Position numbers and translations under genes: made by a program
Shown here: positions 1-64,000 of the stretch, one piece after another
How positions within the stretch are numbered: the first letter of the stretch is position 1
How the letters are laid out: each line of letters starts with the position of its first letter
Source of the DNA: a virus
IMG/VR virus record: IMGVR_UViG_3300036770_001519
Coordinates: 3,671-67,670 of that record
Strand: one strand, 5' to 3'
DNA: 64,000 nucleotides
Notes under the pieces: generated by a model
The model's database searches: none
Told to the model about the DNA's origin: nothing
What the model saw: only the letters and a program-made list of their open reading frames with translations

Positions 1-639
1 CTAAGCACCGCTGGTCTTCTAGACCCCAAGATGATTGAGGTAATGATCGAAGCCAGCAAGGATACAGCAAACTATACAGACGGTCTTCTGGACGTACAGA
101 AGCTATTCCTGTGGGCAGGAGATTCTCCAGAAAGAATCGAAGCCATCAACAGAATGGGTGCCTACATCAATACCACAAGCCGTCAGACAAACACAGATCC
201 AACCCTGCTGGATCTACGAATCAACCAATCAGCCTATGCCAAGGCATTTGGCGTATTCATGCAGTTCCTACTCAGCCACTCTGTACAGGAGATCGGACGT
301 AGACGCAGATACTCCACTGCCAACTACGGTAAGCACCTAGCTGGCATAATGATCATGGAAGCCCTTACCTACAGTCTAGCCCGTCAGAAGGAAGACGATA
401 AGTGGATATGGGAAGAAGCCCAGGAAAAGCCAATAGACGTAACCCTACGTCTAATGACTGGTATGCCAATGCTTGGCTCCTACCAATACCTAGGCAGTCT
501 TATTCGCCAAATCCTACAGGGAGGATATAACGTAATGCAAGGAGATGAATTTGGTAGAGTACGTCTACCCGATCTCTTCTCTGCACCAGCTGAGAACATT
601 CCTAACAAGGGTTGGGAAGTATTCAGAGACATGTTATAA
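1..639 (+). CDS. C-terminal fragment of a large internal virion (gp16-like) protein, 5'-truncated by the window
   Basis: Frame is open from base 1 (LSTAGLLDPK-MIEV...) to TAA at 637-639. Helical with hydrophobic segments, and last gene before the non-coding region. May be the end of the ORF starting at 55395 if the contig is circularly permuted (inference). Confidence 0.55.
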   Translation, partial: LSTAGLLDPKMIEVMIEASKDTANYTDGLLDVQKLFLWAGDSPERIEAINRMGAYINTTSRQTNTDPTLLDLRINQSAYAKAFGVFMQFLLSHSVQEIGRRRRYSTANYGKHLAGIMIMEALTYSLARQKEDDKWIWEEAQEKPIDVTLRLMTGMPMLGSYQYLGSLIRQILQGGYNVMQGDEFGRVRLPDLFSAPAENIPNKGWEVFRDML

Positions 640-11804: not shown

Positions 11805-12438
11805 CCTGCATTGTCCTGCGGTTCATCCGCAATACCTTGAGTTCGTGAAGTCTGTGCGTAAGAAGTACAAGACCGACAGCACTGTGTTCATCGGTGATGT
11901 CGTGGACCATGCGTCCATCTCGTTTCACAAGAAGAATCCCGAGCATCCTGCTGCGCTTGACGAGTATCGTCAGGCAATGGATGCACTCAGTAAGTGGGTA
12001 AAGAACTTCAAGGAAGCAACCATCACCATCGGAAACCATGATGACCGTGTGATTCGAATCGCCGCAGATGCGGGTATTCCATCGCACTATCTCAAGGGAT
12101 ACGAGGAGATGTACAACTCAGCCGAATGGGACTGGGTTCCATCTGTTGAGATCGACGGCGTGTACTACTATCACGGTGTCGGTGCTGGTGGTATGTATCC
12201 CGCCATCAACGCTGCCAAGATGCGGCTACAGTCCGTTGTCATGGGTCACTACCATAGTGTGGCTGGCATCAACTGGATCGTTGGTCCAACCTCACGTATC
12301 TTCGGAATGAATGTCGGGTCTGGTGTTGACCGCTTCCACCCAGCCATGTTGTACGGATCTGCCTACCTCAAGAAGCCTGTGGTTTCCTGCGGTGTGGTGA
12401 TCGACGGTCATCCCTATCTGGAGCTGATGGATCTATGA
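11779..12438 (+). CDS. Calcineurin-like metallophosphoesterase
   Basis: GDLH, GDVVD, GNHD, HG and GHYH motifs in canonical order. Confidence 0.92.
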   Translation: MARVLVVGDLHCPAVHPQYLEFVKSVRKKYKTDSTVFIGDVVDHASISFHKKNPEHPAALDEYRQAMDALSKWVKNFKEATITIGNHDDRVIRIAADAGIPSHYLKGYEEMYNSAEWDWVPSVEIDGVYYYHGVGAGGMYPAINAAKMRLQSVVMGHYHSVAGINWIVGPTSRIFGMNVGSGVDRFHPAMLYGSAYLKKPVVSCGVVIDGHPYLELMDL

Positions 12439-38974: not shown

Positions 38975-38986
38975 GAGGAGATATTG

Positions 38987-47678: not shown

Positions 47679-49349
47679 ATGAAAGTACCAGAAGAAGTAC
47701 TTGAGGATTTCAGGAACCATTTGTTCTTCTCCTTCAAGTATCTAGGACTCGGGGAACCTTCTCCCCTGCAATATGCAATTGCAAACAAGATCCAGCACGG
47801 ACATCGGGACTTCCAGCTTCAGGCGGGAAGAGGAGCTGGAAAGTCAACCATCATGGCGGTGTTCGCCAGCTGGTTATTACTAAAGGATCCTGACACGACG
47901 ATCATGGTTGTTTCGGCAGGTGCCGACAAAGCCATCAAGTTCATCTCGCAGGTCAGGCAGGTTCTAAGCGTGGTCCCCTACATGGGACATCTAACCCCAC
48001 GGGACTTCGATAAGGACAACGCATTTGGATTTAACGTCGCTGCAAGGACCAAGAAGGGTCAGGATCTGTCCTGCTACGCCAAGGGCGTTACAGGTCAATT
48101 AACTGGCTCCCACGCGGACTATATCCTGCTGGATGACATTGAGATCGAAAAGAACTCGGACACGCCCTCAGCCAGAAGCAAGCTGCTTGACAGGCTGACG
48201 GAACTTGAACAGATCAGAAACCCCGTCGAGCATGGAAGAATCATCTTCCTTGGTACATACCAGAGCACGGATTCGATCTACCTTAGGTTACCATACCCAA
48301 TCGTCAAGTTCCCAGCGGTGATGCCAGACCCAGACATTGAAAGCCAGATGCTTCATGTGGATGAATATATCCTCAACATGGATGCAGAACCTGGGTTCTC
48401 CGTGGATCCAATGAGATTCCCGCAGCACGTTCTTGACGAACGTCTTGCCAAGATCGGACCACGGCACTTTGCCCTGCACTATCTGCTGGACCCAACCCTA
48501 AGCGATGCATCCAAGTATCCTCTGAGATTGGAAGATCTCATTGTGATGGATGTTCCAGTCGGTGTGTTTCCAGAGAAGGTCGTATGGGCTAGGGGAACAC
48601 CACTGAAGATACCGACACACGGTCTTAACAACGACTTCATGTATGCACCAATGTGGAAATCACCCACCATGGTCGAGTACAACGAGACTGTTGTGTTCGT
48701 TGATCCCTCTGGTAGAGGTGCCGACGAGACGGCTGTGTGCGTTGCATCGTTCGTCAACGGATACGTTGTCGTTCATGCACTGGTCGGTCTTGAGGGTGGA
48801 TACGACAGTACAACCCTACTGAAGATTGCAAAGCTTGCAAATGCATACGATGCAAGCAGGATCATGGTCGAATCCAACTACGGTGATGGCATGTTCTCGT
48901 CATTGCTAAGACCAATAGTCGCATCTGCCTGTGGCAGAGTAGGCATAGATGAGTTCAAGGTAAGCGGAAACAAGGAGAGAAGAATCCTTGATACGCTTGA
49001 ACCGATCATGTCCCAGCACAGGCTCGTATTCGACACGTCGGCTATCAAGGACAAGGAGAATCAGATCCAGATTACAAGAATGCAGGAAAGACGCGGCGCA
49101 CTCAAGCACGATGACCGCATCGATATTCTTGCAAGCGCGGTAAAGAACTGGTCTGAGGAACTTGTAATTGATCCTGATAGGTTGGTGGAAAGAAACAAAG
49201 AACGAGAACACCAGAATCTAGTCAAGGACTGGATGGGAAACAAGAGAATATCCGTACTACTTGGAGACAGGTATTACGGTCAAAACGAACTTACAAACAC
49301 CCCCAAGAAGCGGGGTCATAACGTATTGGACAACTACTACAGGAGATAA
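47679..49349 (+). CDS. terL: Terminase large subunit (gp19-like)
   Basis: AGRGAGKS Walker A, GQLTGS.AD...DDIE, DPSGRG.DET, ESNYGDGM, HDDR.D. Confidence 0.96.
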   Translation: MKVPEEVLEDFRNHLFFSFKYLGLGEPSPLQYAIANKIQHGHRDFQLQAGRGAGKSTIMAVFASWLLLKDPDTTIMVVSAGADKAIKFISQVRQVLSVVPYMGHLTPRDFDKDNAFGFNVAARTKKGQDLSCYAKGVTGQLTGSHADYILLDDIEIEKNSDTPSARSKLLDRLTELEQIRNPVEHGRIIFLGTYQSTDSIYLRLPYPIVKFPAVMPDPDIESQMLHVDEYILNMDAEPGFSVDPMRFPQHVLDERLAKIGPRHFALHYLLDPTLSDASKYPLRLEDLIVMDVPVGVFPEKVVWARGTPLKIPTHGLNNDFMYAPMWKSPTMVEYNETVVFVDPSGRGADETAVCVASFVNGYVVVHALVGLEGGYDSTTLLKIAKLANAYDASRIMVESNYGDGMFSSLLRPIVASACGRVGIDEFKVSGNKERRILDTLEPIMSQHRLVFDTSAIKDKENQIQITRMQERRGALKHDDRIDILASAVKNWSEELVIDPDRLVERNKEREHQNLVKDWMGNKRISVLLGDRYYGQNELTNTPKKRGHNVLDNYYRR

Positions 49350-49351
49350 AC

Positions 49352-50014
49352 ATGCCCTTTATTGTAGGCGGTTTAGCAGCAGCTAGTTCTATCATGTCTG
49401 GTATTGGCGGCGCATCACAGAGCAAGGCAAATGCCATTGCAGCCAGGATGCAGCAGGACCAGCAGAACTTCCAGAATAAATGGCAGAATGAAGCTCAGAA
49501 TAGAAACCTACTGAGACAATGGGAGGCTCAGTATTTCATCAACAAGCAAATTGAACGAGGCGCAAACCAACAGCTCACGATGGGCAAGGTCTACGCCAGA
49601 GACTCCTATAAGAATGAAGCATCGCTTCTATCAAAACAAACAAGACAGGCAAACAATGCATTTCTTGGCTCCGTAAGTGCCAAAGGAATGTCGTTGGATT
49701 CTGCTTCTGCAAGAGCACTCCTAAGACAAAGTGTCGAGGAGTCCCAGACAATCAGCAGAACAATGAGAACAAACTTTGAAAACCAGATGCGTGATCTTGA
49801 GACAAACTATCAGAATGTTATTTCTGGCAGAGATCTCAATGTACCAGAACAGCAGACATTGCTTACCAGCAAGGCTGTTGTTGCAGATGCATCTTCAAGC
49901 ATGCTTATGACTGGTATTGCTACTGGTCTACTTAGCGGAGCCTCAGCTGGTATTGGAGCTTATAGCGAATACGGCTGGGATAAGTCGGTATCAGGAAGGC
50001 TATCTGGAAAATAA
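49352..50014 (+). CDS. Internal virion protein (gp14-like)
   Basis: Ala/Gly-rich hydrophobic ends, Gln-rich coiled middle, ~220 aa; first gene of the ejection-protein block. Confidence 0.65.
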   Translation: MPFIVGGLAAASSIMSGIGGASQSKANAIAARMQQDQQNFQNKWQNEAQNRNLLRQWEAQYFINKQIERGANQQLTMGKVYARDSYKNEASLLSKQTRQANNAFLGSVSAKGMSLDSASARALLRQSVEESQTISRTMRTNFENQMRDLETNYQNVISGRDLNVPEQQTLLTSKAVVADASSSMLMTGIATGLLSGASAGIGAYSEYGWDKSVSGRLSGK

Positions 50015-50016
50015 CA

Positions 50017-51006
50017 ATGCTAAATACTGATAAACTAAACAAGCTGTATAAACTGGCTACTGGTAATAAATCAGAACAAGCAACACCAAAGAGCAAGGAT
50101 AGACTAAAGCTTGACAAGGCAGAGAAAAGCCTTAGAAGCTATAGAAGCGCATACTCAGATCCCGTAGATGCGTGGTCCAAGTGGGTTGCAGAACAAGATC
50201 AAAACATCGATGCAGACAACGCAGATGATGTTTGGAACATGGCTGAAAAAGAGTTTCCTGGTTCTCAGGAACAAGCAAGAGATCAGATTCGAAATCAGAT
50301 TAGATCACGAATCTCGTCTAACGATCCATCTATACGAGAACAGCAGCTTAGAAACACCATGATTAAATCACCATCGTGGTTGAATCAAGAACTTGAGGAA
50401 GAACTAAGGACCGCGTCTACAGTCTCTTCCAATCAGAACTTATTCAAGTCAAAGTCTGTATACCTAAAATCTCTTGAGCAAAAACTTGGAAAGTTTAACT
50501 TCCAGGAACTTGACCCAGACGTTCCAGCTGATGTTCACGTCATGGAAGCTGTAAAGCTTGAGGCACTTGGTCTTCTGGATACTGCAAAGATTGTTAATGG
50601 AAGATTTGTTGTCATGGGTAAAGGCGGCTCAATTCAGCCAGCCTTCTCCGTAACACAAGAAGCAGAGCTGTCTGGAGAACTCAACACGGAATCTCCAGAG
50701 ATACAGATGATTATGCAGCTAGCTCCTTCCATTGTAAAGAAGTACGTGGAACCAGCCATGCAGTCAACTCAGGGAATTATGTCCATGGAAAACAGGGCAT
50801 CAAGAGGTGCTGCGCTTCAGATGCTTCGGGGAGGATCTCTTCCCGTTGATCGCTGGGGTGAGGCACTGTCCCTACTAAATGAAAATCAGGGTGCTGGAAT
50901 CAACGAAGGCATAGCTGGACTTGCTGAACAGAACCCAAACATGAACGAAGAAGATGCTGCCAAGTACAGCATGGATATCATTAGTAATTACGGAGGTATG
51001 GTTTGA
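50017..51006 (+). CDS. Probable internal virion protein
   Basis: Helical 329 aa ORF within the ejection-protein block. Confidence 0.55.
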   Translation: MLNTDKLNKLYKLATGNKSEQATPKSKDRLKLDKAEKSLRSYRSAYSDPVDAWSKWVAEQDQNIDADNADDVWNMAEKEFPGSQEQARDQIRNQIRSRISSNDPSIREQQLRNTMIKSPSWLNQELEEELRTASTVSSNQNLFKSKSVYLKSLEQKLGKFNFQELDPDVPADVHVMEAVKLEALGLLDTAKIVNGRFVVMGKGGSIQPAFSVTQEAELSGELNTESPEIQMIMQLAPSIVKKYVEPAMQSTQGIMSMENRASRGAALQMLRGGSLPVDRWGEALSLLNENQGAGINEGIAGLAEQNPNMNEEDAAKYSMDIISNYGGMV

Positions 51007-54000
51007 GTAGAATTGAAACACAAGGACCACAGGCGTTCCTCATGCCTTCGCAGAAGCCAGCTCTATATCAGGAAAGTGCAACGATCTTTCCTCAGCCTAG
51101 AGTTGACATAGCCGAGGGCATCGACATCGGTGCTATTGGCAAGGCTGCATATGGTTTGGGTGCAGAGATCGTAGATGCAACAACAAAGTATAGATTTAAT
51201 AAGACTCAAACCGCACTTGATTCCTATACCATTGCATCAGAGGCAGCTCTAAAAGCTTTTGCGGACAATGGACAATTCGACAAGTACAAGCAAGAGCAAG
51301 AAAACTACCGAAAGCAAGTAAGAGAACTTCTTGGCTTTGATCCAGAAAAGGACGAGCCATTTGGAAACCAGCAACAAAGACTAAAGGCAAGTGCAACAAA
51401 GGCAATAGCAACCTTTGATAATAACCTTGGAGTTGCTCAGGGAGAATACGAGCAACTGGTAGAGCTTGATACATTTGAATCAATGGCAAATAAGCTTGAG
51501 GTTGAACTACAATTACAACCAACAGCTGAAGATAGAATTAGATACATCAATGAGACAATGCGACCAGGAATAGCTGGCGTGTTTAAGACTAGTTTTGGAT
51601 CTGATATCTTTACGCTTGATCCAAAATTACCAATGTCTAAGCAAAAAAGAGCATTGGCAAGAACCATAGAGGCTGCTTGGCTTAAGCTTCAAAACGAAAT
51701 TGACAGATCTGAAAATGAAATAGCCAATAGAAAAGAAGATAAGATTGTGTTTCCAGAACTTGATACCAATCAAGCAAGAAACAACATTAAAATAGGAAGA
51801 GATAACGTATCAAGTGCAAGTCAGGCACTTGATCTTTTACGTGACGCACTTCCAGGTATTAAAAAGGATGACATACCTCTTAGTTCCTTACCACAGGATC
51901 AACAAGTAGCTATAAATTCAGCTGGTAAAAGCGTTGCATCTGCTCTTAACTATTATAGAAGAGCGGTTGGTGATTTGCTTACACAAGCTTGGGAAATTAA
52001 CAGCGGTCCCATGGGTCCACTGCTTCCTTTTGAGGATAGTCCCTATGCCGAAGTAGATCCACTAAGCGATGAGGCACTGACTATTATTGCAGACTCACCA
52101 GGCGTAAAGCCTGAAGACATGAGCGAGCTTACACAGTTTAGAAAAGAACTAAGAGATTTTGAATTCTCGGCAATGAAAAGCGTTGTGGGTGTGCAAACCA
52201 GCATACTAGACGCTGCTATTGAAAAAAGAAAAAGAATTGCACAGGGTCTATTTGAGCAGACTTCAGCAAGGGTTGCTCTTATTGATCGTGACGCAGCAGT
52301 AAATCCAGAAGCGGCTACACTTGAAAGAGAGCGAATATCACAGGAGTTTGAAGCTCAACTTACAGCACTTCTTTCAAACGCATCTCCATACAGTCAGTCT
52401 GATTTTCTAGCTAACTTCAGAAAAAAGAAGATAACATCTTCTACAGACTTAATAATGGCTGTAAGAGAATCCGTTCCACCAACATTCAGTCTATCCGTTT
52501 TTGGAAACCTAATGGACAGCCGACTGGATTCAACTCCTAGATTCAGGGAAGAGTTTAATACATTCCTTGATTTTAACATGCGGCTTCAAAAGCAAATCTA
52601 TGGCGATCAAAAAGCAACCATAGGATCTGCACTAGACGCAACAAGAAGACAGTCTGAAAAGTTTTTAAAGGACCAAGAAAAACGAAGAAGACTTTTAAAC
52701 ATAATAGCATACGAACAGGGTGGAACAAAGGAAACTTTAGAACCTGAAAAAGTAACTCAAGCTGAAAAAAGAGAAGCTGCGTTTCTTGCTATTCAGATGA
52801 AACTTCCAGCTGGTTCCAGCTTGTATGATGACAATGGAAACCTAAAGGAACTTTCCGTTATATCGGAAGAACTCAGCAGGGGCAACCAATCAGTTCCTCT
52901 TCCTCTTTCGCTGCTGATGGAAACACCATACTGGCAGCACATGCTTTCTGATGTGCAGAATTCAAAAACACCAGAAGACACCCTAAAGAGGCTTTTTGCT
53001 CCATTCATCAGTGGTCCAGAAGGTGGTGGTGGAATAAGCTGGGATGATATCAAGAGATCCAATACCTATACCCTGAGATCACCCGATATCTCCGATAATG
53101 CTTCTGACGCTATTATGGAGGGCTTGAAGTCTTCCAACCCAGGAAGAACCCAAGCAACAATGGCAACTTTTCTAATGTATCCAGAGGATACTAGAAAGCA
53201 GTTTCTTGCTAGACTTGATACTGCTATTGAAGCGGAAACAGATCCCCTTACCAAACATTCCTTAAGTATTCGTAGGGCAAGATTAACAGCCTTTAACAAC
53301 ACATATAAGAATGAGAACCCATTTGAGTTTGTTAAAAACGAAATTAATGTAATTCCAGATGAGCAGGTTGTTCTATACGATAGACTAAAGAGAACACTAA
53401 CAGGGTTAGCTGGTGGTCGTATTTCTGAAGCTCAAAAGGAAGGTATTGAAAAAGCAATATCAGAAGGAAGAGCTACACAAAAGTCTGAAGAGCTTGCAGA
53501 ACTTCAAAGACTAATGCCAATGTTTGCCTCTGTATATGAAAATATTCAGATTGGAAACGGTACTGAACTTTCAGACGATGGCAAAACAACTGTAGAAGAT
53601 CGCTTTAGAAAACTATTGTCTGATCCTTCAGATGAAGAACTATTAGACAGAAGAACTGCTGCTAGTATTGTTGATCAGGTAATACTTGATGAATACTTTG
53701 AATCTCGCTGGGCGCATCCAGCATTAGATCCTAACTCCGATGATTTCTCAGACATTTTAACAAAACGAGTAAACGATAAACTCTCATCATTTGCGTGGAA
53801 AACACGTGTTCTTGATCCAAACTTTGGAAATACAAAAGCATCTAAGCCACGTGAAAAAACAACAATGCCATCTCACATCTCTACAAGAGGTGGTGTCGAT
53901 GGATTGTTTACCACCGAACAGGCAGTAATGTCCTCTAACCCGCTTGTAATGGGTTTTGCGGATGACATGACTGCAAAGACTGTGGTTGGTCAGTTTCTTC

Positions 54001-55328
54001 CAGCAAATGCTGAAGCAACTGCGGCAATAAAAAGCATGCCAAACCAACACGCAGCTCTTGCAGCTGTAGCAGCAGCTAGTAATATTCCACCTTATGTGGT
54101 GGGCATTTCAAGAGACAGCCCAGCAAAGATGGCTTACTATCTTGCAGAGGCTGCATTGAATGGAAAAACAGATGCAGCTGCAATACTTGCAGCACAGGCT
54201 ACTCTTTCCATGATGCCAGAAGTATCGTCAGAAGACGATGCGAGAAAGAAGGCTGCATCTCTTGGAGCAAGAATACGCTCGCAAATTCTTGATGGTACTT
54301 TAAAGATGGAGACTGAGGCCCATCCCTCGTTCATGAGTGAAGATAGTCTTGTTCCAACCTATGTACTCTACGTAAACGGAAAGAAGGTTGCATCCATGCA
54401 ACCAAATTCCAACAGCGTTACAGAGAACCTCAAGGACAATCCAGTATATGTCGAGAGACTTAAGAAGACATCTTCAAGAGAAATATCAGACATATACAAC
54501 AGTGATTCTTTTACGGCTGACAAGGAGCAAGACTTCTCCATGCCAACAAAAAGAGACATGCTTGTAAAAGATTGGTTGATGGCACAGGAAGAACCAAACC
54601 TTCTTATCAGGCCTTATATCCACAGCGATACCGCAACATTCTCACACAACCTGTGGGATGAAGCGTGGGCTTTTAGAAAGAAGACCATGCCAGATGGTAC
54701 TGTTGTGGTTGAGAAGGTAAAGCAGATAAAGCAATATAAGAAGGAAGACGGTTCCTTTAGCTCTACTCCACGCTGGGCTGACTATACCGAGGTATACGAT
54801 CCAGCACTATATGGTGGCGTAGAAAGAAAGCGATTTAGAACAAGCGAAACATCGTCACGTCTTAAGTTTGTAGAATCGCCAGGTCTTCCACTACACAGAC
54901 CAGTTCTTCTTGAGACAAGAAGACCTGAAAGATATCTTGATGATCCAAACATTGCCACTGGAGAATCGCTTGTGTACAGTCCAGAGAGACTTGCAGAAGA
55001 CGAGCAAAACCTGTTGATGCTTGAAGAACCAAGCAACGTCAGGGAAATCTTTGTAAATACCAGAGGCAATAGACGATATTCATCCGAGTTTGAAAATCTT
55101 GGTAAGAAGGATGAATCCATCAATAGACTGTTGAATTCCGATGACACGACCCTAACGGTTGCAGAAGTATCGGAAGACACAAGAGACTTCACAAGGTTTG
55201 TTTCGACCTTTGTCAAGTTCCAAGATCCACTGACGAAACAACTGAAGATAATGCGATATACCACAATGACGGCTGGTCCATGGAAGCAATCCTATGATCC
55301 AATCATTGTATACTCTGCGGATGAGTAA
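51003..55328 (+). CDS. Large internal virion protein (gp15-like position)
   Basis: 1441 aa helical ORF; GGAGG RBS; position between gp14-like and gp16-like genes. Confidence 0.65.
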   Translation: MSRIETQGPQAFLMPSQKPALYQESATIFPQPRVDIAEGIDIGAIGKAAYGLGAEIVDATTKYRFNKTQTALDSYTIASEAALKAFADNGQFDKYKQEQENYRKQVRELLGFDPEKDEPFGNQQQRLKASATKAIATFDNNLGVAQGEYEQLVELDTFESMANKLEVELQLQPTAEDRIRYINETMRPGIAGVFKTSFGSDIFTLDPKLPMSKQKRALARTIEAAWLKLQNEIDRSENEIANRKEDKIVFPELDTNQARNNIKIGRDNVSSASQALDLLRDALPGIKKDDIPLSSLPQDQQVAINSAGKSVASALNYYRRAVGDLLTQAWEINSGPMGPLLPFEDSPYAEVDPLSDEALTIIADSPGVKPEDMSELTQFRKELRDFEFSAMKSVVGVQTSILDAAIEKRKRIAQGLFEQTSARVALIDRDAAVNPEAATLERERISQEFEAQLTALLSNASPYSQSDFLANFRKKKITSSTDLIMAVRESVPPTFSLSVFGNLMDSRLDSTPRFREEFNTFLDFNMRLQKQIYGDQKATIGSALDATRRQSEKFLKDQEKRRRLLNIIAYEQGGTKETLEPEKVTQAEKREAAFLAIQMKLPAGSSLYDDNGNLKELSVISEELSRGNQSVPLPLSLLMETPYWQHMLSDVQNSKTPEDTLKRLFAPFISGPEGGGGISWDDIKRSNTYTLRSPDISDNASDAIMEGLKSSNPGRTQATMATFLMYPEDTRKQFLARLDTAIEAETDPLTKHSLSIRRARLTAFNNTYKNENPFEFVKNEINVIPDEQVVLYDRLKRTLTGLAGGRISEAQKEGIEKAISEGRATQKSEELAELQRLMPMFASVYENIQIGNGTELSDDGKTTVEDRFRKLLSDPSDEELLDRRTAASIVDQVILDEYFESRWAHPALDPNSDDFSDILTKRVNDKLSSFAWKTRVLDPNFGNTKASKPREKTTMPSHISTRGGVDGLFTTEQAVMSSNPLVMGFADDMTAKTVVGQFLPANAEATAAIKSMPNQHAALAAVAAASNIPPYVVGISRDSPAKMAYYLAEAALNGKTDAAAILAAQATLSMMPEVSSEDDARKKAASLGARIRSQILDGTLKMETEAHPSFMSEDSLVPTYVLYVNGKKVASMQPNSNSVTENLKDNPVYVERLKKTSSREISDIYNSDSFTADKEQDFSMPTKRDMLVKDWLMAQEEPNLLIRPYIHSDTATFSHNLWDEAWAFRKKTMPDGTVVVEKVKQIKQYKKEDGSFSSTPRWADYTEVYDPALYGGVERKRFRTSETSSRLKFVESPGLPLHRPVLLETRRPERYLDDPNIATGESLVYSPERLAEDEQNLLMLEEPSNVREIFVNTRGNRRYSSEFENLGKKDESINRLLNSDDTTLTVAEVSEDTRDFTRFVSTFVKFQDPLTKQLKIMRYTTMTAGPWKQSYDPIIVYSADE

Positions 55329-55350
55329 CGGTAATTGCAATTGAAAACAA

Positions 55351-55383
55351 GGGGAGGGGAGTAACTTCCCCTCCCTTACTTTA
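55351..55383 (+). terminator. GC hairpin before the giant gene
   Basis: GGGAGGGGA-GTAACT-TCCCCTCCC followed by TTACTTT. Confidence 0.5.
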
Positions 55384-55394
55384 AAAGGAAAAAC

Positions 55395-58300
55395 ATGTCA
55401 GGTATTGATCCATTTAAGCTTCTCCAAGATGTGTTTGAATCAAACAAACAGCTTGCTTCGGAGCGAGATCCAGATACAAAACCACTTTTTGCACAGTATG
55501 CTGGACTAGAAAACAGCATTTCAGAGTCGGCAGTACAACCTACGCTAGCCGCACAACGTGCAGAGAGAGCACAGTTTGATAGAGAATACGTTGGCTTAAG
55601 CACTCTTAAGGCATTTGATAATCTTAAATTCAACGTTGTAGATGACAACGGTTCGCGGTTTAATCGCGGCTACTCAGCAATGAAGGATACCGTACAGACG
55701 GCATCTTCGCAGGGTTGGGGTGAACGAAATATCTTTAGAGAGAGACAGCGTTTAAACATGTCGAAGGGACAGGCTTCTGGTTTCATCAAGACATCCGATG
55801 AAATGGGAAGCTGGAGAGATAGAAGAGAAGGAATCTCACAATGGTACGATGGTGTAGTAGAGCACTTTGAAAAGTGGTTCCACACTACCGAGCTTGAGGG
55901 AGATTACCAGAAACTCAAGTGGCAGCTGTCACAACCAGACAGTAGCTGGACAGAGGCTAGAAAGTATGAAGCTCTTTCCAATTGGCAAGAGCAGAACAAG
56001 GAAGCCTATGACTACATAAGACGGGCTGGCGTTGACTTCAATACGTTTGTCGGACCAACGGTAAACGAAACTGGATTCAATGTAGCTATGATGGAAGCCG
56101 CAAAGCAAGCGGTTCTAAATCGAAGAATGCGTCTTTGGGAAGAAGACAACGGTGCAGTACTGAAGTTTGTTGCATCGGCTGCAGAAAGTTTCAAGGATCC
56201 TGCCATGATGCGGGATATCCTTCTTACTACAGCCCTAACAATGGGACTTGCAACGCCACAGGTCATAGGCACAAGACTAGGTGTCAACGGTCTTCAGGTT
56301 TCCCAGTCAGCACTGGCTTCAGCACGTCTGTTGCAGTTGACAGGACCAATGACTGGTCTTATTGAAGGACCAGTATATGCAGCTTTGCGTGGCACCATTC
56401 TGAATCAAGCAGGACGCAGGGCAACCGATACGATGGTTGCCCGTGGTCTTGCTATGTTTACTGAAGGTGCTGTTGCGGGAACTGTTGCATCTCTTGCAGA
56501 TCAACGTGATGACTACGAGTGGAGATCACTTGTATTCAAGGATACCGACAAGGTGTTCAAGTATGACTTCAAGAACGCAATTACAGAGGGTGTCTACAGC
56601 GGTACGGGAGCAATGACCATGCTTGGTCTAATGCGCTTCGGTCTTGGTGCCCTTGGTGACTTCAAGTACTACAGCAAGGGTGACTGGAACAACTGGGGAC
56701 GAAGCATTGCCAACTCCCTTGACACATGGGCAGAAACAAAGGAAGGTCTTACCGTATTCGGAGAACAACTAAGCGATGGTCGCGGAATGTTCTTTGGAGA
56801 TCTTATCGACAGATACATGAAGGGTAAGGACGGTAGGGATTTTGCAAACATAATGTTGAATGGAAGCCGTCTATTTGGTCGGCTTGATCCAGTAATTGCT
56901 GGACGCTTGAACTTGGATACAAAAGAAGTTCTTGAAGTAGCTGAGGAATTTGAAAAGATAACTGGAGTGGCTGGTGAAGCTGCAATGAGACGCCTTGATG
57001 GTGTCGATCCAGATCTAAGCAATACCTTCATGCTAATGCTTAACAAGAAGTTCCTTGAGTCCCAGGATCTAAGCTACCCAGAAGTAGCAGGTCTTCTAAA
57101 GGACTTCTCAAGCTATTCGTCTGGAAAGGGAATGCTTCCTCTTCCAGAGACTGGCGAAGGTAGATTCCTAAGAGCCGTGAAAAAGGATCCAGCAAGAACA
57201 TCGCAGCAACTCAGACGCTTGCTTGACCTCAGAATTCTCGACAAGAAGCTGAACAAGTATGGTGTCTCAAGTGTTGTAGCTCTGGCAGATGCAGAGAATG
57301 CCCTTGGTCGCAGACTGGATCTCATGGAAGACAACGACTATAGATCCTATAGAATGGCTGCTGCATTTGCCGAGGGTTCACAAAAGGAACAGGCAGTTGT
57401 CTCTTCGCTATCAACGCTACTTAGTACAACTGATGAAATGGTAAACATTGGCGGCAGAGAAATTCCAACAGAGGTTGCACGGCAAGCCGTAAGAACCTCA
57501 CTTGGTCTTGACGGTCGCAAGGAATTGCTTTACCTGAACGACGCTGGAGAAGCCGACAGAGCCACATTCATGGTTATGATCGACCCAGCAACCAACGAGG
57601 TTCTTCGAACTAGACGGCAGCTTACCGTTGGCAAGGATGGATCTCTTGAGATCTCATTCGCTGCCAAGGAAAATGCTTCCTATAAGCCAGAGAATATAAT
57701 CTCAACGGTCGAGTTCAAGGAAAAGATAGAGGAAATAAACAACAAGATCCGCGAAGGTTGGCTTGATTGGACAAAGAAGAATATCAAGAAGGCCATCGAA
57801 GGAGTTAAGGATCCAGTAAAGAAGAAGGAAATTGAAAAGACGTTTGACGATCTATTCAACGAGGGTAAGGAACCAACGATTGAAAACATCTCGCGTATCT
57901 TCAGCATGAACAAGACGGAGGCAACAGTCTCCCAGATAATCATGCGTTCTCTTGGTTACGATCCAAATGAAAAGATGTTGAGAATTGCAAGAGGTTCCGT
58001 AGACGAGGGTGCAACTGGAAACATCATTCTTGCTGGAACACAGGCACTTATCAACGCAACAAAGGCATCCGACATCGGAACAGTCGCACATGAGATGGGA
58101 CACTATAATAGGTTCATCTTTGGTCAAGACACCGAAGACTCACGTGCAGCTCGTCATGCCATTGGAATTACCGATGACATGTGGGATAAGTTCAAGGACT
58201 GGTGCGGTGTAAAGGATGGCAACTGGACACTAGCGGCAGAGGAGAAGTTTGCAAACGGCTGGGCTTATTACATCAGAAATGTAATGCAAGGCAATGGCAA

Positions 58301-61300
58301 GGCTCCAACTACCTCTATCCAGCGGCTCTTCCACAGACTTGGAGATCACCTAGGAAACGTAGGAGAAAACTTCAAGACTCAAGAAGCACTTGAAGCTGGT
58401 CTTGCTCTTTCACCAGTTGCAGAAGAAGTGTTTGAAAAGCTACTGATCAGAAGCAATGACAAGATCAGCGAACTATTTGACATCAGCTATCATAGAATCT
58501 TCAAGAGACTTCCAGCCGACAAACGAAATGAAATCGGCGTTGAGATTCTTGGAGAGATGGCGTGGAATGACTATAAGGCAAAGCTGGAAAAGTCAACGGC
58601 AGAAGCAAGAGTCAAGACTGATCCTATACTTGCAGGAGCAGCTGCTCCGCGTGTAAGGGTATCTGATGTTGTCAATGACATTGCAGCAGTAGCCGCAGGA
58701 ACAGCTACAAAGAAGACAATCAGAGAAGCACTAAAAGCTGGCTTGACCAAAGATCAAATTTTAAGTAAGCTTAAAGAGTTTGGTGCTCTTACAGCTAAAT
58801 CACTTGGGACTTATCTTCCAAAAGATCGTGATGCAACACCATATACTTTTGTAAAAACATACAAGCATAGTAAGTTACCATTTCACGCTGATACAACACT
58901 AGAAGTTATAGATGAAAAAATAGCTAGAGAGGGTAAAGACACTAAAATAAATTATGTTGTTGATACCCGTATTTCACTTACTGGTTCAGAACTAGAAATA
59001 CTTCCAATTTTTTACTCTATTAGTTTAGAAGATCTACGAGCAGAGTTTGTAAGACGGTCTGGAGAAAAAACAGAAGCTCCAGAAGTTTCAGAAACCGAGA
59101 TTCTAGAGGCTATTGATGCCTTGAGCACCTCAACTGGCTTCGTAGATTCCGATGGTCTTGCTGTAGAGCTAACATCAACAGAAGCTGTTGTAGCCACAAT
59201 GCGGGCTGTAGAAGCTGCTGAAACAAGAGCTGTAGCTGAAAGAGCTGCGGCAACAGCAGACGAACTATCGACAAGAACCGATGAGGAAATGCTTGGATAT
59301 TCTCCAGACACTTCCGTATCTACGGCTGGTGTTGAGGTTCTGTCTGCTTCTGAAATCAATGTTGAGACTGAGGTACCAACACCAGCAGCACTGGGTGTAA
59401 CAAATACACTTGCACGTCTTACAACAGTAAGAAACAATGCAGAAAGAGTATCTCAGGAGCTTCCTGAAACAGCGCGAAGACAGCTGGCTGCGTTTGCATC
59501 ACTGGCTGTTTCAAACCCAGAAAGAACGGCTGAGCTTGTAAAAGCTTGGCGTGAGTATCAGACTAATAACGTACAGACCGCTCCAAGGGCTGCAGAGGAA
59601 TATCTTGTTGCAGAGATGCGAAACATCATTGCACGGGATACAATTGAAACCCTTACTGGAATGTCGGATGAGGCATTGACCCAGTTTGTTAGATTGCGAA
59701 AATTCGTTGAAGAGTTTTCGGATACTCCAGAGTATGACAAGCTTATTATCAACAATGATTTTGAAGGCTTCATTGAAAAGCATCCAGAATTCTCAAGAGA
59801 ACAGCTTCAACTATACTTGCTTGGTCTTTCTCACATTCAGTCTCAGCTTTCACGTGCTGAGTTCATGTCGGCATCTCGTACCCTTAGAAGGGATGCTGCA
59901 GCATACGATGCCGCAGTTGCGTATGTAAAGGAAAACGAAGAGGCATATGCCAAGGCTCTTGAAACAAAGAGCGATGCTGACAAGGATCTGATCAAGAAAG
60001 TAAAGGCAAGCAAGACCATAATCACAAACTATGAGAACGCACAAAAGCGTGTTCAGATGGGTGTGCTTGGCAACGAGATCGTTGACCAGGGAGTGGTTGA
60101 GTCCGTAACAAAGACAAGAACATTCGACATTGAAAACCTTGCCAACTACCGCAGGGTCTACGATATCTACCAAGGTGTCGAGGACGTGCTGAACAACAAG
60201 GGTATTTCGGTTGACATCAGTGTGCTTGATCTTCTTGAGGAGTTCGACAAAGACAACAAGCTTATCAGCAGCATTGCCGAAAGACTTGGCGTTTCCGATG
60301 AGGAAAACCAAAGAGAGGCTGTGCTTGAGTGGGCTTCAGGAAAAGACGAGTACAACAACAACAAGTTCTCCAAGGAGAATCTTGCCTCAGCCAAGGCTTA
60401 TGTACGAGGTGTAGTAAAGAAGCTGAACGAAAAGCAGCAGTCAAAGGGAACAAAGAAGCAGGTTGGCAGCTTTGAGGTTGTATCGGGAGGAACCACTACG
60501 GATCTATCCGCTGGTCTTACCTCCACCAACCGAGAGACAAAGACGCTAAGCAAGCTCGCTGCAAACAACGAAAGCAATCTTCTTCTATTTACCACCTCTG
60601 TTCTCTATGAAAGACTAAAGAACAATGGAGAGGTTGAGCTTGCAGAATACCTTGCTGCAAGACGGGCAACTCACTGGTTGCCTGGAAACAGAGAAGACAA
60701 TATTAGGTCTGCATTTGAGCTTCGTCAAAACGAACTTGGCTTGAATGCACTGACCAAAGCAAGCATCGACGCACTTGAGCAAAAACTTGTCAGAAGAATT
60801 GGAGAGTTTGCACGGGAGCTTAAGACGCTTGGTCTTGGTGAAGCAGCCGAGATCATAACAACAACAAAACTTGGAATGGACGAGACGGTTGTATTCAACC
60901 AAGGTCCGATTGATCTACAGTTGGAACAGCTTGCCGAGAAGGTAGCCCTGTCAATGGATGTAACACCATCCCGTCTTATTCCAGTTGAAAGACAGTTGAT
61001 GTCTGCAATGGCTAATGCCCGTAGACTGGAAGAAGAAGAAATGTCAATGGACTTCAAGAATCTCATTCTTGATATTCAGATTGGAGAGATCAAGACAGCC
61101 AAGGAGCTTATCCAGCGTCTTGCATCCTTCAAGAACGACGCACAGGGAGTTGCGAAGCAGATTGCTAAAAACGACTTCCTTCTTTCTGTTCTTGATTCGA
61201 CAACACTCATGCTTGTTCTTGACAAGTATGCTGTTGCTGCATATAGTCCAAGACACAACATCTTGGCTATCAATCCATTTCAGGCACAACATCCAAACAC

Positions 61301-64000
61301 CTTGCTGCATGAGGTATATCATGCAATGACATCGGCTACTATCTTCAACATGCTTGGAGAAAGAAACCTAGATGTCGGTGAAGACTATTTATCAAGTCTT
61401 GTTGAGCTGCGTGAAACAGTTAGTGAAGACCTTAGAATACTTATTGACATGTACCTAAAGTACGTCAATGAAAAGGTTCCACCAGGTCTGCGCGGAGCAA
61501 TTAACGATACCAAGATGTTTGAGGAAATGATGGCAGCTAATCCCGAAGCTGGTAGATACTACGCGGGATTCTCTCTAGATGAGTTTGTTGCCGAAGGTCT
61601 TACAAATCCATCTGTGGTCAAGGATCTACTTACGTTGGATTCCGACGATATCGTAGATACTGGTGCATACAGGGACATGATAGAGGCAACCCTAAGAATG
61701 GTTGGAATCAAGCCAACGGAAGAAACATTCTCAGTTGCATCTGGAAAGGCTTTTACAAACCTGTCAGCAACCACGATGAACATTGCAAATGACCTTGAGT
61801 CTGCGTTTGGAATCATCGGTATGGTTCATACCTTGGAAGATCTTCTTCCAACATCTCCATCCTACTCATCAGCTGACATTATGTTCAGAATGCGTGGGTC
61901 GCAGATTCAACCAATCTCTGCGTTTGTACATGCTGGAAAGGATCCTAGAAAGACTGCTGTTGTATACAACCAGGCTTTCGTAAATCCTGCTGAAAAGGAA
62001 CAGTTAAAGCTAAGAGCTGATCTTTCAGCTGCAAAGGGCCGTCTTCACAAGAAGTATAAAATCTTCAATCAAGACTCCGTACATCTGGAAAAACTTGAGG
62101 AAAACAAGTTTACGGTTGTTGGCGGTCAGCTTGGATCGAACCAAGCAAAACAACTTGTAGATGAATCTGGAAAGAAGTTCTACCTAAAGAAAGCAAAGTC
62201 AAAAAGCCATGCTGAAAACGAGATACTTGCACAAGTACTCTATGGTGCACTTGGTATCAAGTCGGTAAAGTCCGTAAAGGTAACTCAAGATGCCTTCGGA
62301 ATGTCTGGTCCACTGCTAATGTCATCGTGGCTGGATAATGTTGTTTCATTTGACAAGAACAACCCAGACCACATCAAGGCTGGGCATGAGGTATTCATGG
62401 CATCGGCTTGGCTAGCTAACTGGGATGTAGCTGGTGGTCCAGGATCTCCATACGACAATACGGATGGCAATGGTGTAATCCTAGATACTGGTGGATCTCT
62501 TAAGTGGAGAGCCATGGGTAGTCCTAAGGGTACTGCATTTGGTCCAGAAGTTACGGAGCTTGACAAATTCCTAGATCCATATACAAACCCAACGGCAGCA
62601 AACATGTTTGCAAACCTAACGGATGCAGACAAGCTAGAACAAGCGGCTAATCTTGTTGGAACAATGACCAATAGTCTAATCAAGGATCTTGTGTTCACCA
62701 TTATAACGGATAATGCAGAAGCCAAGGAAATTTCCAACATACTGATTGCGCGAAGAAACTATATTTCCAATAAGTTCCTTGGCACAATAAAGAGTATTGA
62801 AGTTTCAAAGGAGAATGCCGACTGGTCTATTAAGTCAATCATTGATCAGGAAGAACCAGATCTTGCTGAAATTCCAGCAAAGGAATCTTCTCTATATCAA
62901 GAAATTGCTTTAAATGATGCAGTAACTAATTTGTTTTATAAAGTATATCCTACCGTTAACACATCTATGTTAAACGAGGTTCAGGAGTGGGTAGTCAATG
63001 AAGTATTGACAGGATCTGCTTTTAACACCATGTTACTAGCAGTACAAGAAGTTTCTAACGACCTTGAGCCAGGTTGGGTATACAGCGTTGATGTCTTGAA
63101 GAAGAAAATTATCAGTACATTTGATGAACTTATTCTTACAACACCAGTAATAAACTCCGTAAACTCTGTTGTAGAAGATACAGCAGACGGTGCTGCGGTT
63201 GCAATTGAAAATCCACTTGTACCCTTTATTGCAAACAAGATAAAGAATCCAGACTCTAAGTTTAAATGGGAAGATTGGCACTCTTTGAATCCCAAGCTAC
63301 CACAGTCATTATGGGAAAATCTATTCGATTCTTATAATCTTTCATTTGACGATGTGTGGAAAACACATCTTTACGATCTACTCCAAAAAATGGACGAAGA
63401 TAGTAGAGTCGATGCACAAACCAAAGCAGCCGAATATGCAGTATGGTTTGCAGCTAAAGGATACATTATACCAGAAGCTACCGCGCTATTTCTCACCATC
63501 AAAAATCAGTGGCCTGCTGTAGCCGCATACACTTCATATATGAAAGATGATGAAGTTATTTTTGACTGGACAAGTAACTGGACTATATACTCACCTACTA
63601 GTGATGATCTTCTTACTTTCTTAAATAGTAATCATGGCGATAGCCTTGATATATCAGAAGAATTTAAGACATTTGGAATTAGCTCAGAAGCTCAGGTTAA
63701 ACTTACTGGTTTATGTTATACTCTTGAAAGTTTAGGTTTTAGTGAACACGGTTGGTCTATAGAAAATTATGTTGCTACGAAAGTAGACAACATTATGATG
63801 TCAAACGAATCTGGAGAATTTACTTCAGATGATTTTAATACTTTAGCTAATGCTTTAAGTCTCCAGTTTACGCTATCAGCTAGTTCGTTGAAGAAGGTAA
63901 TTGATCAAAAGGCTAGTTCTATAGTAGCAGTAGAGGATGCAAATCTTAGTGCTATAAAGCCTTCTGTAGTTTCTGAAAATGCTTTTCAAAAAGCATTTGC
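55395..64000 (+). CDS. Giant internal virion / polyvalent protein (>2868 aa, 3'-truncated) with two zincin motifs and a kinase-like domain
   Basis: AAGGA RBS and ATG 55395. No in-frame stop (absent from the ORF track; frame spot-checked). HEMGH 58089-58103, HEVYH 61308-61322 with DEFVAE 61578-61595, kinase motifs ~62100-62770, all in frame. Confidence 0.85.
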   Translation, partial: MSGIDPFKLLQDVFESNKQLASERDPDTKPLFAQYAGLENSISESAVQPTLAAQRAERAQFDREYVGLSTLKAFDNLKFNVVDDNGSRFNRGYSAMKDTVQTASSQGWGERNIFRERQRLNMSKGQASGFIKTSDEMGSWRDRREGISQWYDGVVEHFEKWFHTTELEGDYQKLKWQLSQPDSSWTEARKYEALSNWQEQNKEAYDYIRRAGVDFNTFVGPTVNETGFNVAMMEAAKQAVLNRRMRLWEEDNGAVLKFVASAAESFKDPAMMRDILLTTALTMGLATPQVIGTRLGVNGLQVSQSALASARLLQLTGPMTGLIEGPVYAALRGTILNQAGRRATDTMVARGLAMFTEGAVAGTVASLADQRDDYEWRSLVFKDTDKVFKYDFKNAITEGVYSGTGAMTMLGLMRFGLGALGDFKYYSKGDWNNWGRSIANSLDTWAETKEGLTVFGEQLSDGRGMFFGDLIDRYMKGKDGRDFANIMLNGSRLFGRLDPVIAGRLNLDTKEVLEVAEEFEKITGVAGEAAMRRLDGVDPDLSNTFMLMLNKKFLESQDLSYPEVAGLLKDFSSYSSGKGMLPLPETGEGRFLRAVKKDPARTSQQLRRLLDLRILDKKLNKYGVSSVVALADAENALGRRLDLMEDNDYRSYRMAAAFAEGSQKEQAVVSSLSTLLSTTDEMVNIGGREIPTEVARQAVRTSLGLDGRKELLYLNDAGEADRATFMVMIDPATNEVLRTRRQLTVGKDGSLEISFAAKENASYKPENIISTVEFKEKIEEINNKIREGWLDWTKKNIKKAIEGVKDPVKKKEIEKTFDDLFNEGKEPTIENISRIFSMNKTEATVSQIIMRSLGYDPNEKMLRIARGSVDEGATGNIILAGTQALINATKASDIGTVAHEMGHYNRFIFGQDTEDSRAARHAIGITDDMWDKFKDWCGVKDGNWTLAAEEKFANGWAYYIRNVMQGNGKAPTTSIQRLFHRLGDHLGNVGENFKTQEALEAGLALSPVAEEVFEKLLIRSNDKISELFDISYHRIFKRLPADKRNEIGVEILGEMAWNDYKAKLEKSTAEARVKTDPILAGAAAPRVRVSDVVNDIAAVAAGTATKKTIREALKAGLTKDQILSKLKEFGALTAKSLGTYLPKDRDATPYTFVKTYKHSKLPFHADTTLEVIDEKIAREGKDTKINYVVDTRISLTGSELEILPIFYSISLEDLRAEFVRRSGEKTEAPEVSETEILEAIDALSTSTGFVDSDGLAVELTSTEAVVATMRAVEAAETRAVAERAAATADELSTRTDEEMLGYSPDTSVSTAGVEVLSASEINVETEVPTPAALGVTNTLARLTTVRNNAERVSQELPETARRQLAAFASLAVSNPERTAELVKAWREYQTNNVQTAPRAAEEYLVAEMRNIIARDTIETLTGMSDEALTQFVRLRKFVEEFSDTPEYDKLIINNDFEGFIEKHPEFSREQLQLYLLGLSHIQSQLSRAEFMSASRTLRRDAAAYDAAVAYVKENEEAYAKALETKSDADKDLIKKVKASKTIITNYENAQKRVQMGVLGNEIVDQGVVESVTKTRTFDIENLANYRRVYDIYQGVEDVLNNKGISVDISVLDLLEEFDKDNKLISSIAERLGVSDEENQREAVLEWASGKDEYNNNKFSKENLASAKAYVRGVVKKLNEKQQSKGTKKQVGSFEVVSGGTTTDLSAGLTSTNRETKTLSKLAANNESNLLLFTTSVLYERLKNNGEVELAEYLAARRATHWLPGNREDNIRSAFELRQNELGLNALTKASIDALEQKLVRRIGEFARELKTLGLGEAAEIITTTKLGMDETVVFNQGPIDLQLEQLAEKVALSMDVTPSRLIPVERQLMSAMANARRLEEEEMSMDFKNLILDIQIGEIKTAKELIQRLASFKNDAQGVAKQIAKNDFLLSVLDSTTLMLVLDKYAVAAYSPRHNILAINPFQAQHPNTLLHEVYHAMTSATIFNMLGERNLDVGEDYLSSLVELRETVSEDLRILIDMYLKYVNEKVPPGLRGAINDTKMFEEMMAANPEAGRYYAGFSLDEFVAEGLTNPSVVKDLLTLDSDDIVDTGAYRDMIEATLRMVGIKPTEETFSVASGKAFTNLSATTMNIANDLESAFGIIGMVHTLEDLLPTSPSYSSADIMFRMRGSQIQPISAFVHAGKDPRKTAVVYNQAFVNPAEKEQLKLRADLSAAKGRLHKKYKIFNQDSVHLEKLEENKFTVVGGQLGSNQAKQLVDESGKKFYLKKAKSKSHAENEILAQVLYGALGIKSVKSVKVTQDAFGMSGPLLMSSWLDNVVSFDKNNPDHIKAGHEVFMASAWLANWDVAGGPGSPYDNTDGNGVILDTGGSLKWRAMGSPKGTAFGPEVTELDKFLDPYTNPTAANMFANLTDADKLEQAANLVGTMTNSLIKDLVFTIITDNAEAKEISNILIARRNYISNKFLGTIKSIEVSKENADWSIKSIIDQEEPDLAEIPAKESSLYQEIALNDAVTNLFYKVYPTVNTSMLNEVQEWVVNEVLTGSAFNTMLLAVQEVSNDLEPGWVYSVDVLKKKIISTFDELILTTPVINSVNSVVEDTADGAAVAIENPLVPFIANKIKNPDSKFKWEDWHSLNPKLPQSLWENLFDSYNLSFDDVWKTHLYDLLQKMDEDSRVDAQTKAAEYAVWFAAKGYIIPEATALFLTIKNQWPAVAAYTSYMKDDEVIFDWTSNWTIYSPTSDDLLTFLNSNHGDSLDISEEFKTFGISSEAQVKLTGLCYTLESLGFSEHGWSIENYVATKVDNIMMSNESGEFTSDDFNTLANALSLQFTLSASSLKKVIDQKASSIVAVEDANLSAIKPSVVSENAFQKAF

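Follow-up and report, generated by a model that had tools for sequence, protein, structure and literature searches.

What role can a single gene of 12.7 kb play in a virus of T7-like gene order? This question is raised by a stretch of 64,000 nucleotides (hereafter the window) corresponding to bases 3671-67670 of the 67,670-bp IMG/VR virus contig IMGVR_UViG_3300036770_001519 (CheckV completeness 100). In the 3' part of the window, an open reading frame (ORF) starts on the + strand and runs off the end; once completed, it codes for a giant protein of 4,238 amino acids (aa). Polyvalent proteins, described by Iyer, Burroughs, Anand, de Souza and Aravind (2017, J Bacteriol, PMC5512222), provide the closest frame for its interpretation. 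Our results indicate that the giant protein is probably a phage-type polyvalent protein, packaged, ejected and carrying cargo, and that this cargo occupies one sharply bounded slot within a conserved scaffold.

Extent and coding status of the giant gene

The frame is open over 2,868 codons, from ATG 55395 to position 63998 of the + strand, and shows no stop up to the window end. Re-translation, free of in-frame stops, confirmed the original prediction of one open frame of more than 2868 codons. A Shine-Dalgarno-like AAGGA lies about 7 nucleotides (nt) 5' of the ATG. Codons 1-2868 (55395..64000, + strand) run off both the window and the contig and comprise the N module, the left slot border and the beginning of the cassette with its kinase-like domain (see below). 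Over 198 nt, the two contig ends are identical except for one mismatch, and this overlap lies inside the giant gene (window 63803-64000 versus contig bases 1-198, L002:1-198). This makes the assembly circular, and its unique length 67,472 bp. Following the proposal to extend the frame to its stop, it was traced across the junction via contig bases 199-4309 to a stop at window position 639. Codons 2869-4026 correspond to contig bases 199-3670, outside the window, and the last 212 codons with the stop (window 1..639, + strand), reached across the 198-nt overlap, form the end of the C module. The complete product has a mass of 473 kDa, a pI of 5.3 and 3 cysteines, and its gene takes up 19% of the genome. 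The record is classed as 'linear, no end repeats', yet it represents a circular assembly cut within the giant gene. The single mismatch of the overlap swaps one residue (Leu/Ile) between the two contig-end copies.

The metagenomic homologue P0006 (4,236 aa, encoded on a 67,295-bp contig) was collinear with the N part of the giant protein at 55% identity, and with its C part at 68% identity over 1,330 aa, through the shared last residue. Since P0006 is collinear with both parts, the contig join is real and no artefact; a chimeric assembly was ruled out by this collinearity together with independent contigs over the ORF. Polymorphism over window 55000-64000 was examined with contigs from three further public runs; these runs, of subsurface and freshwater metagenomes, belong to three studies, and their contigs covered the giant ORF at 95-100% identity. 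The sole indel listed among those runs was a 3-nt in-frame deletion at 61039, and the 32 in-ORF substitutions listed (with 212 rows beyond these) fell predominantly at codon position 3 (26, against five at the first position and one at the second). The giant ORF is thus a real gene under purifying selection. One freshwater run (X3) is the source of the deletion at 61039, a naturally occurring length variant close to where the zincin 2 region starts. Metatranscriptome contigs (X10) were recorded on 12 of 30 ORF bins, which is no proof of transcription, and the uncovered bins carry no meaning.

A conserved scaffold with a variable slot

A word-indexed search uncovered 21 full-length relatives of 3,127-4,548 aa, all of them metagenomic. 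With a profile of the C module, 41 matches at E<=0.001 were obtained among 1.84 billion representative proteins. At E<=1e-30 there were 32 matches, either full-length proteins (2,586-4,538 aa) or shorter fragments. The weaker ones (P0059-P0067) ranged from 172 to 1,683 aa, and P0060-P0066, of 950-1,680 aa, were named by neither Pfam nor PHROGs. When proteins of intermediate size with the C module were sought, only fragments came up.

The architecture was deduced from a 22-sequence alignment, this phage included. An N module (aa 1-2220), with highest conservation at aa 250-550 and 850-1100, is separated by a variable region (aa 2250-3250) from the C module (aa 3250-4238), where conservation is strongest, with 50-74% of residues in common in each 50-residue bin. 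One sharply bounded slot, between K[AGS][AGS]KGR and QKRA (aa 3255 here), makes up the variable region. On the left, the border is formed by SAAKGR (aa 2211-2216) followed by KIFNQD (together aa 2211-2228, 62025..62078, + strand); on the right, by RILNQKRA (aa 3250-3257), which by arithmetic from the ORF join lies at about contig 1343-1366, outside the window.

Slot content divides the family into three sets. The slot is empty (5-10 aa) in 7 of the 22 members. In four others, 375-485 aa are found with the ADP-ribosyltransferase (ART) domain ART-PolyVal. The remaining 11 members, this phage among them, carry 888-1,385 aa with an NWD kinase-like motif that occurs in none of the 11 others. The Pfam ART-PolyVal model was passed by P0016 (67.7 bits), P0020 (65.8 bits) and P0009 (41 bits; cut-off 31.2), and likewise by P0037; for P0017, the fourth member of the 375-485-aa set, the assignment comes from a precomputed label. 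A similar short peptide is found on both slot borders of this phage (KIFNQD on the left, RILNQK on the right), and empty-slot members display a single copy, VYAQ[LM]RA. A third peptide of border type, VVFNQG at aa 1833, lies just ahead of zincin 2 and is conserved in 20 of 21 sequences. At the DNA level no repeats were found at the slot borders, the best match being 8 of 11 bases.

The slot cassette also distinguishes itself by its base composition. Its G+C content is 39.1% (32% at third codon positions, GC3), against 48.0% in the C module (GC3 52%), 44-46% in the N module and 46.7% in the genome. This low value fits a later acquisition. Seen along the DNA, window 62000-64000 and contig 199-3000 form a compositional island within one ORF (GC 37.5-41.5%, GC3 29-36%). 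The cassette part at aa 2471-2868 (62805..63998, + strand), equally low in G+C, is common to the closest relatives only and contains no assignable domain.

Two zincin-like sites were predicted in the frame, and both stood up to examination. HExxH occurs at aa 899 and aa 1972, against 0.04 occurrences expected from composition; both are invariant in all 22 family members, and of 15 full-length relatives at greater distance, 13 have at least two such motifs. Behind both sites of the giant protein comes a conserved stretch with a Glu. Zincin 1 (aa 850-1100, 57942..58694, + strand), recognised by its motifs only, combines HEMGH at aa 899 (nt 58089-58103) with an EEKFANG helix, and zincin 2 (aa 1890-2140, 61062..61814, + strand) combines HEVYH at aa 1972 (nt 61308-61322) with a DEFVAEG helix. 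In the cited passages of PMC5512222, the metallopeptidase of polyvalent proteins is defined by an HExxH helix plus a second helix with Glu, and aa 2130-2448 of the N4 virion RNA polymerase are given as an example.

A relationship between zincin 2 and this N4 domain was observed. The family alignment of zincin 2 was compared by hhalign with a profile of N4-type virion RNA polymerase peptidases from six phages (N4, JWAlpha, RiverRider, Gutmeister, ort11 and vB_RpoP-V14). The probability was 95%, with E 3.8e-8 over 104 columns (reversed control E 0.12), and the alignment covered both the HExxH helix and the NEF-A-GL helix. When 15 sliding windows of the giant protein were compared with N4 gp50 alone, only the zincin 2 window matched (E 3.8e-5, gp50 aa 2223-2241), the other 14 giving E 0.019-0.43. 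By profile similarity, zincin 2 is a homologue of the metallopeptidase domain found in virion RNA polymerases of N4 type. Zincin 1 had no family or profile match, and hhalign comparisons with the N4 metallopeptidase and with zincin 2 yielded nothing at its motif. An N4-like virion RNA polymerase was considered as an identity for the giant protein and rejected, as no polymerase module is present.

The cassette of this phage opens with a putative kinase-like cargo domain (aa 2232-2470, 62088..62804, + strand) with the motif order GSN, K, NE, NWDV-G-DN and D-GG. When the giant N part was compared by tblastn with 50,697 cultured-phage records, 20 were matched, all via this stretch alone. Domains with 29-42% identity to it occur in the gp129 protein of Yersinia phage fHe-Yen8-01, which has 2,146 aa, is annotated as 'ADP-ribosyltransferase toxin; phage particle associated protein' and ends in ADPrib_exo_Tox. 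The kinase-like domain was also present in a 3,289-aa protein of Actinomycetia phage DSL-LC01, the gene of which is situated between those of portal and maturation protease, and four further proteins pair it with ART or NUDIX domains. In an alignment of eight sequences, G, S, the E of NE, N-W-D-V, G, the N of DN and D-x-G-G were invariant (8/8); the Lys of Y-[VL]-K stands outside this set, being conserved only with a local shift in one sequence. Order and spacing of the motifs resemble those of kinases (Gly loop, Lys, Glu, catalytic loop, DFG). On these motifs, aa 2232-2470 may be regarded as a protein-kinase-like domain. What had been predicted here as a kinase-like domain is therefore retained as a conserved domain with kinase-like motif order, to which no library or solved structure gives a name.

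At its other end, directly 5' of the C module, the cassette of about 1,030 aa possibly finishes with a divergent ART-PolyVal-like stretch: aa 3077-3143 aligned to the first half of the ART-PolyVal regions of P0016, P0020 and P0025 (hhalign E 0.014, reversed control 0.69). Judged from its residues, activity of this stretch is doubtful.

Probable packaging and ejection, and competing explanations

The giant gene closes a block of four genes on the + strand that directly follows the large terminase subunit gene (47679..49349). Nearly free of spacers, the block codes for proteins of 220 aa (49352..50014), 329 aa (50017..51006; 326-365 aa in relatives) and 1,441 aa (51003..55328; 1,383-1,634 aa in relatives) and for the giant protein. 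These are the only unassigned large genes of the phage. The 220-aa protein showed a weak, full-length but below-cut-off resemblance to Pfam T7_gp14 (PF24072; E 2.3e-4, 21.6 bits, profile positions 10-176 of 187), as did three of its six orthologues (E 0.007-0.04, 14-17 bits). The 329-aa and 1,441-aa proteins had no family match; the latter, for which tblastn against the cultured-phage records was also without match, is a candidate internal core protein by position alone. The same order, i.e. terminase (~560 aa), ~220 aa, 326-365 aa, 1,383-1,634 aa and giant protein (3,176-4,007 aa), was found in the 7 IMG/VR loci listed of 9 found. At locus L010 the contig ends inside the giant gene, and at locus L007 small genes and then the RNA polymerase gene come after the giant gene. 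A related-locus search from a single sequence returned none. Situated behind portal, capsid, tail, fibre and terminase genes, the giant gene occupies the last place of a late region, and late virion genes are, according to the cited passages of PMC5512222, the typical surroundings of phage polyvalent proteins.

The case for ejection rests on gene position, on elimination and on the zincin and kinase-like links. The original prediction of a polyvalent, probably injected multi-enzyme protein keeps its outline: the gene belongs to a late block with a weakly gp14-like gene, relatives combine zincins with ART-PolyVal at Pfam level in the equivalent slot, zincin 2 is related to a domain of the N4 virion RNA polymerase and the kinase-like domain recurs in a 'phage particle associated' protein. 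As regards T7 gp16, neither homology to it nor an SLT domain was found. The N4 enzyme is packaged and injected, and its metallopeptidase region is needed for encapsidation (PMC5512222, passages cited). The same source proposes self-processing of polyvalent proteins as the role of zincins, and T4 Alt, an ART protein, is likewise packaged in the head and injected (PMC9503650, PMC5512222).

We infer packaging into the virion and ejection, followed by enzyme activity and possibly an anti-defence or takeover role. The giant protein would be made late and packed in the head with the 220-, 329- and 1,441-aa products, and this post-terminase block would stand in for the gp14-15-16 internal core of T7. 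Its ejection into the host cell would accompany or precede that of the DNA. One or both zincins might then cleave the giant polypeptide, and the cargo enzymes might modify host proteins at the very start of infection. Since the giant gene is the last of the late operon and the early region comes next on the circular map, the cargo would act early only if carried in as protein. The giant gene itself probably enters the cell last.

Likenesses to the polyvalent proteins of PMC5512222 are several, as far as the cited passages go. Both are very large single chains encoded among late or virion genes, with more than one zincin-like HExxH-plus-Glu site between other domains; ART-PolyVal is found in relatives of the giant protein, unrelated effector-type chemistries may be joined in one chain, and packaging, injection and self-processing are predicted. 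In contrast to these proteins, the giant protein is unmatched by Pfam PolyVal or LPD models, its scaffold (N and C modules, ~3,200 aa) makes up a separate family with 41 representatives among the proteins searched, its cargo sits in one defined slot instead of forming a free string of domains, and its virus, of T7-like type, encodes a single-subunit RNA polymerase of its own. N4 gp50 (3,500 aa, Schitoviridae) is comparable as a giant late-gene product with a peptidase region homologous to zincin 2. Unlike gp50, the giant protein has no RNA polymerase module, the phage possessing a separate T7-type RNA polymerase of 825 aa. The fHe-Yen8-01 protein, annotated as particle-associated, shares the kinase-like domain (about 33% identity) and joins it to an ART domain, whereas the Yersinia phage differs in morphology and has a genome of ~92 kb, and the rest of gp129 is unrelated to the giant protein. 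In this comparison, which includes head-packaged ART proteins such as T4 Alt, the giant protein's own ART-like stretch is divergent and putative.

A further comparison concerns T7 gp16 (internal virion protein D) and gp16-type proteins of other Autographiviridae (phiKMV gp37, SP6 gp37 and LUZ100 gp47, among others). Like them, the giant protein is the largest product of a run starting with a gene that, here, is weakly gp14-like, and contains Gly/Ala-rich, moderately hydrophobic segments. In contrast, it is 3.2 times longer than T7 gp16, shows no SLT domain or robust profile similarity, and belongs to a block placed after terminase instead of tail tube B. The statement that gp16 is about half its size needs correction, since the 1,318 aa of gp16 amount to under a third of 4,238 aa. 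Downstream of the 1,441-aa gene, and just before the ribosome-binding site of the giant gene, there is a G+C-rich 12-bp hairpin (55350..55377, + strand; -21.9 kcal/mol, z -2.9). A positionally equivalent hairpin with another stem sequence was found in 5 of 6 related loci (L005, L007, L008, L010 and L011), the sixth not being evaluable. It may be a terminator or attenuator, or a processing site of RNase III type, that lowers the amount of giant product. Such reduced expression would fit the low copy number stated in the T7 record for gp16, a core component of ~3 copies.

A number of observations weigh against a packaged and ejected polyvalent protein. At the level of the whole protein, Pfam, PHROGs and NCBIfam searches with the complete sequence and 24 overlapping pieces of 360 aa gave nothing above cut-off. 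The families of the 220-, 329- and 1,441-aa proteins and six modules of the giant protein were compared by hhalign with T7 gp13-16 references of one, four and eight phages. No robust link of the giant, 1,441-aa or 329-aa protein to these references appeared, and the 220-aa family compared with gp14 gave P 0.025 against 0.1 for the reversed control. The 220-aa protein also stayed under the 27-bit cut-off of PF24072, to which T7 gp14 itself scores 160 bits. Internal-core genes follow tail tube B in T7, RHEph01, CRP-114, LUZ100, phiKMV, P-SSP7 and SP6; here the fibre genes directly follow tail tube B and the core-candidate block is placed after terminase. No peptidoglycan hydrolase domain as in T7 gp16 and phiKMV gp36 was found, nor any classical membrane helix, the highest 19-residue Kyte-Doolittle mean of the giant protein being 1.48. 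At the level of the cargo, Pfam MPTase-PolyVal and Kinase-PolyVal had no match in the phage genome even at E 10, and ART-PolyVal (PF18760) none in the genome at E 10 or in the protein pieces. The kinase-like domain matched neither PDB sequences nor, by hhalign, HipA or T7 gp0.7. Finally, the alignment of the phage's own ART-like stretch is weak at E 0.014, and its candidate catalytic positions vary among the closest relatives.

In a test on T7 proteins, Pfam contained no model recognising gp15 or the non-SLT part of gp16, so that the absence of library matches for the larger block proteins says little. Internal-virion PHROGs were matched by 0 ORFs of this phage. An SLT domain was found neither in the giant protein nor in its pieces, in a scan where T7 gp16 gave SLT at E 1.7e-31. 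A similarity between giant aa 210-348 and gp16 aa 237-369 (P 0.0026 with the 4-sequence reference) was discarded, as it was gone with the 8-sequence reference (P 0.2). Homology to gp16 was accordingly left unsupported, with 0 PHROGs families and an hhalign match that was not reproduced, an outcome compatible with remote homology.

The giant protein could be packaged and ejected merely as an internal-core scaffold with a role in the DNA channel, its enzyme motifs serving its own maturation or being relics, with no host-directed effector. The 7 of 22 members with an empty slot do function without cargo, conservation centres on the N and C modules rather than on the cassette, the kinase-like and ART-like assignments have no family-level support, and self-processing is the zincin role proposed in the cited passages of PMC5512222. 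Yet the kinase-type motif positions are intact in the eight aligned sequences (with the Lys shift mentioned above), bona fide ART-PolyVal fills the equivalent slot in relatives, the kinase-like domain travels with ART and NUDIX domains in unrelated proteins and the low-GC, swappable cassette resembles acquired cargo. A scaffold devoid of effectors is, on balance, rather unlikely.

Packaging itself might be dispensed with if the product were a late cytoplasmic multi-enzyme polyprotein acting in host shut-off, superinfection exclusion or assembly. This would agree with the failure to find homology to known internal virion proteins and with a post-terminase position that is atypical for core genes of T7-like phages. 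We consider it quite unlikely: no gene of the phage would then be left as a candidate for the internal core, a structure needed by T7-like phages, and the giant gene is tightly linked in an operon to a gp14-like gene. Moreover, a packaged protein contains a domain homologous to zincin 2, a particle-associated one contains the kinase-like domain, and the late virion-gene neighbourhood is typical of phage polyvalent proteins (PMC5512222, passages cited). An external structure for tail or adsorption, i.e. a giant fibre, spike or surface-degrading enzyme, would account for the large size and the late-operon position. This proposal is very improbable, as fibre roles are covered by three genes after tail tube B, including that of a 1,775-aa protein, and no fibre, spike, collagen or beta-helix family was matched; besides, according to the same passages of PMC5512222, it is injected proteins and not fibres that typically contain zincin, ART and kinase-like domains.

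Within the preferred interpretation as a packaged, ejected and cargo-carrying protein, the border peptide (hydrophobic-hydrophobic-N/A-Q-K/L) invites a more specific proposal, which we regard as unlikely: it would be the recognition site of the N4-type zincin, making the giant protein a self-unloading cargo carrier. Were this true, the zincin would cut at the border peptides after ejection and free the kinase or ART cassette, and perhaps the peptidase, into the cytoplasm, with the N and C modules staying at the DNA channel. The border peptide would also be a universal docking site where cargo is swapped by recombination.

The polyvalent class as such was already described (PMC5512222, PMC9503650, in the passages cited). 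What is new here is a family with neither cultured relative nor library coverage, a T7-like lineage hosting it with a displaced core block, the protein size, the series of empty, ART and kinase-like slots with a repeated border peptide, and the homology of zincin 2 to the peptidase of the N4 virion RNA polymerase. The polyvalent injected-protein theme would thereby be extended to a deep-branching T7-like lineage of freshwater and subsurface, and such a protein would receive its first homology link to the encapsidation-linked peptidase domain of the N4 enzyme. The family constitutes a clean natural experiment, in which one scaffold occurs with an empty, an ART or a kinase-like slot between sharp borders. 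Because these borders are so sharply defined along the slot series, cargo delivery and zincin processing are directly testable. Our results also draw attention to an unnamed kinase-like domain that co-occurs with ART and NUDIX in virion proteins of cultured phages. Literature searches on polyvalent internal virion proteins, on fHe-Yen8-01 and on T7-like giant ejection ART proteins returned nothing relevant.

Remaining regions and genome setting

The N module contains three Gly/Ala-rich segments (aa 275-293, 347-369 and 405-423; together aa 275-423, 56217..56663, + strand), which belong to its best conserved part. These segments and a further one at aa 3830-3848 reached Kyte-Doolittle 19-residue means of 1.0-1.5. 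The Ala/Gly-rich hydrophobic helices predicted near the N-terminus are thus present as segments at aa 275-423, with a moderate hydrophobicity that stays below the transmembrane threshold. No domain could be assigned to aa 1-850, 1100-1890 and 2470-3060 or to the C module. PDB sequence and profile searches (P0001, P0003, A2, A3, A5, A6) gave matches at chance level only. In the cultured-phage records, tblastn found no match to the C part, and none to the N part outside the kinase-like domain. In the Atlas, the C module was closest to unnamed viral clusters (0.96), the nearest named ones being LPD39, ART-PolyVal and LPD38 (0.92-0.93), a proximity that is taken as a lead only.

All sizeable ORFs of the phage lie on the + strand, and PHROGs assignments revealed a T7-like gene order. 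It starts with the T7-type RNA polymerase (825 aa, start 8886), primase/helicase (start 17381), DNA polymerase (start 20263), exonuclease (start 23093) and ribonucleotide reductase (24398-26278). Then follow portal (start 27542), scaffold (start 29841), major capsid (start 30771), tail tube A (start 32180), tail tube B (start 32932) and fibre genes (starts 35544 and 38984). The RNA polymerase and terminase were respectively 27-30% and 38-40% identical to those of the best cultured Autographiviridae, and blastn with the portal-capsid DNA gave no match. The phage represents a deep-branching, uncultured lineage of T7-like, short-tailed phages with a genome of ~67.5 kb, i.e. ~25 kb above the usual size. 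The ribonucleotide reductase and a metallophosphoesterase (11629-12438) in the replication module, together with three giant genes, account for this large genome.

Three other observations concern neighbouring regions. In the 1,441-aa protein, aa 574-633 gave a weak NCBIfam match to a trypsin-like serine endoprotease (E 0.0011, 18.8 bits versus a cut-off of 200), which is probably due to chance. The 1,775-aa fibre-like protein (38984-44311) carries an N-terminal Mtd_N domain (BPP-1-type major tropism determinant, E 2.6e-19), a phage tail repeat (PTR) and, at its C-terminus, a glycine-rich domain. A reverse transcriptase was not noticed, no search for one having been made, and a diversity-generating system is not indicated. 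Lastly, window 640-1350, 3' of the giant stop, contains no long + strand ORF and is followed by small early genes. A simple promoter and terminator scan of this region gave no distinctive + strand signal; it is a likely place of the physical genome ends or of early promoters.

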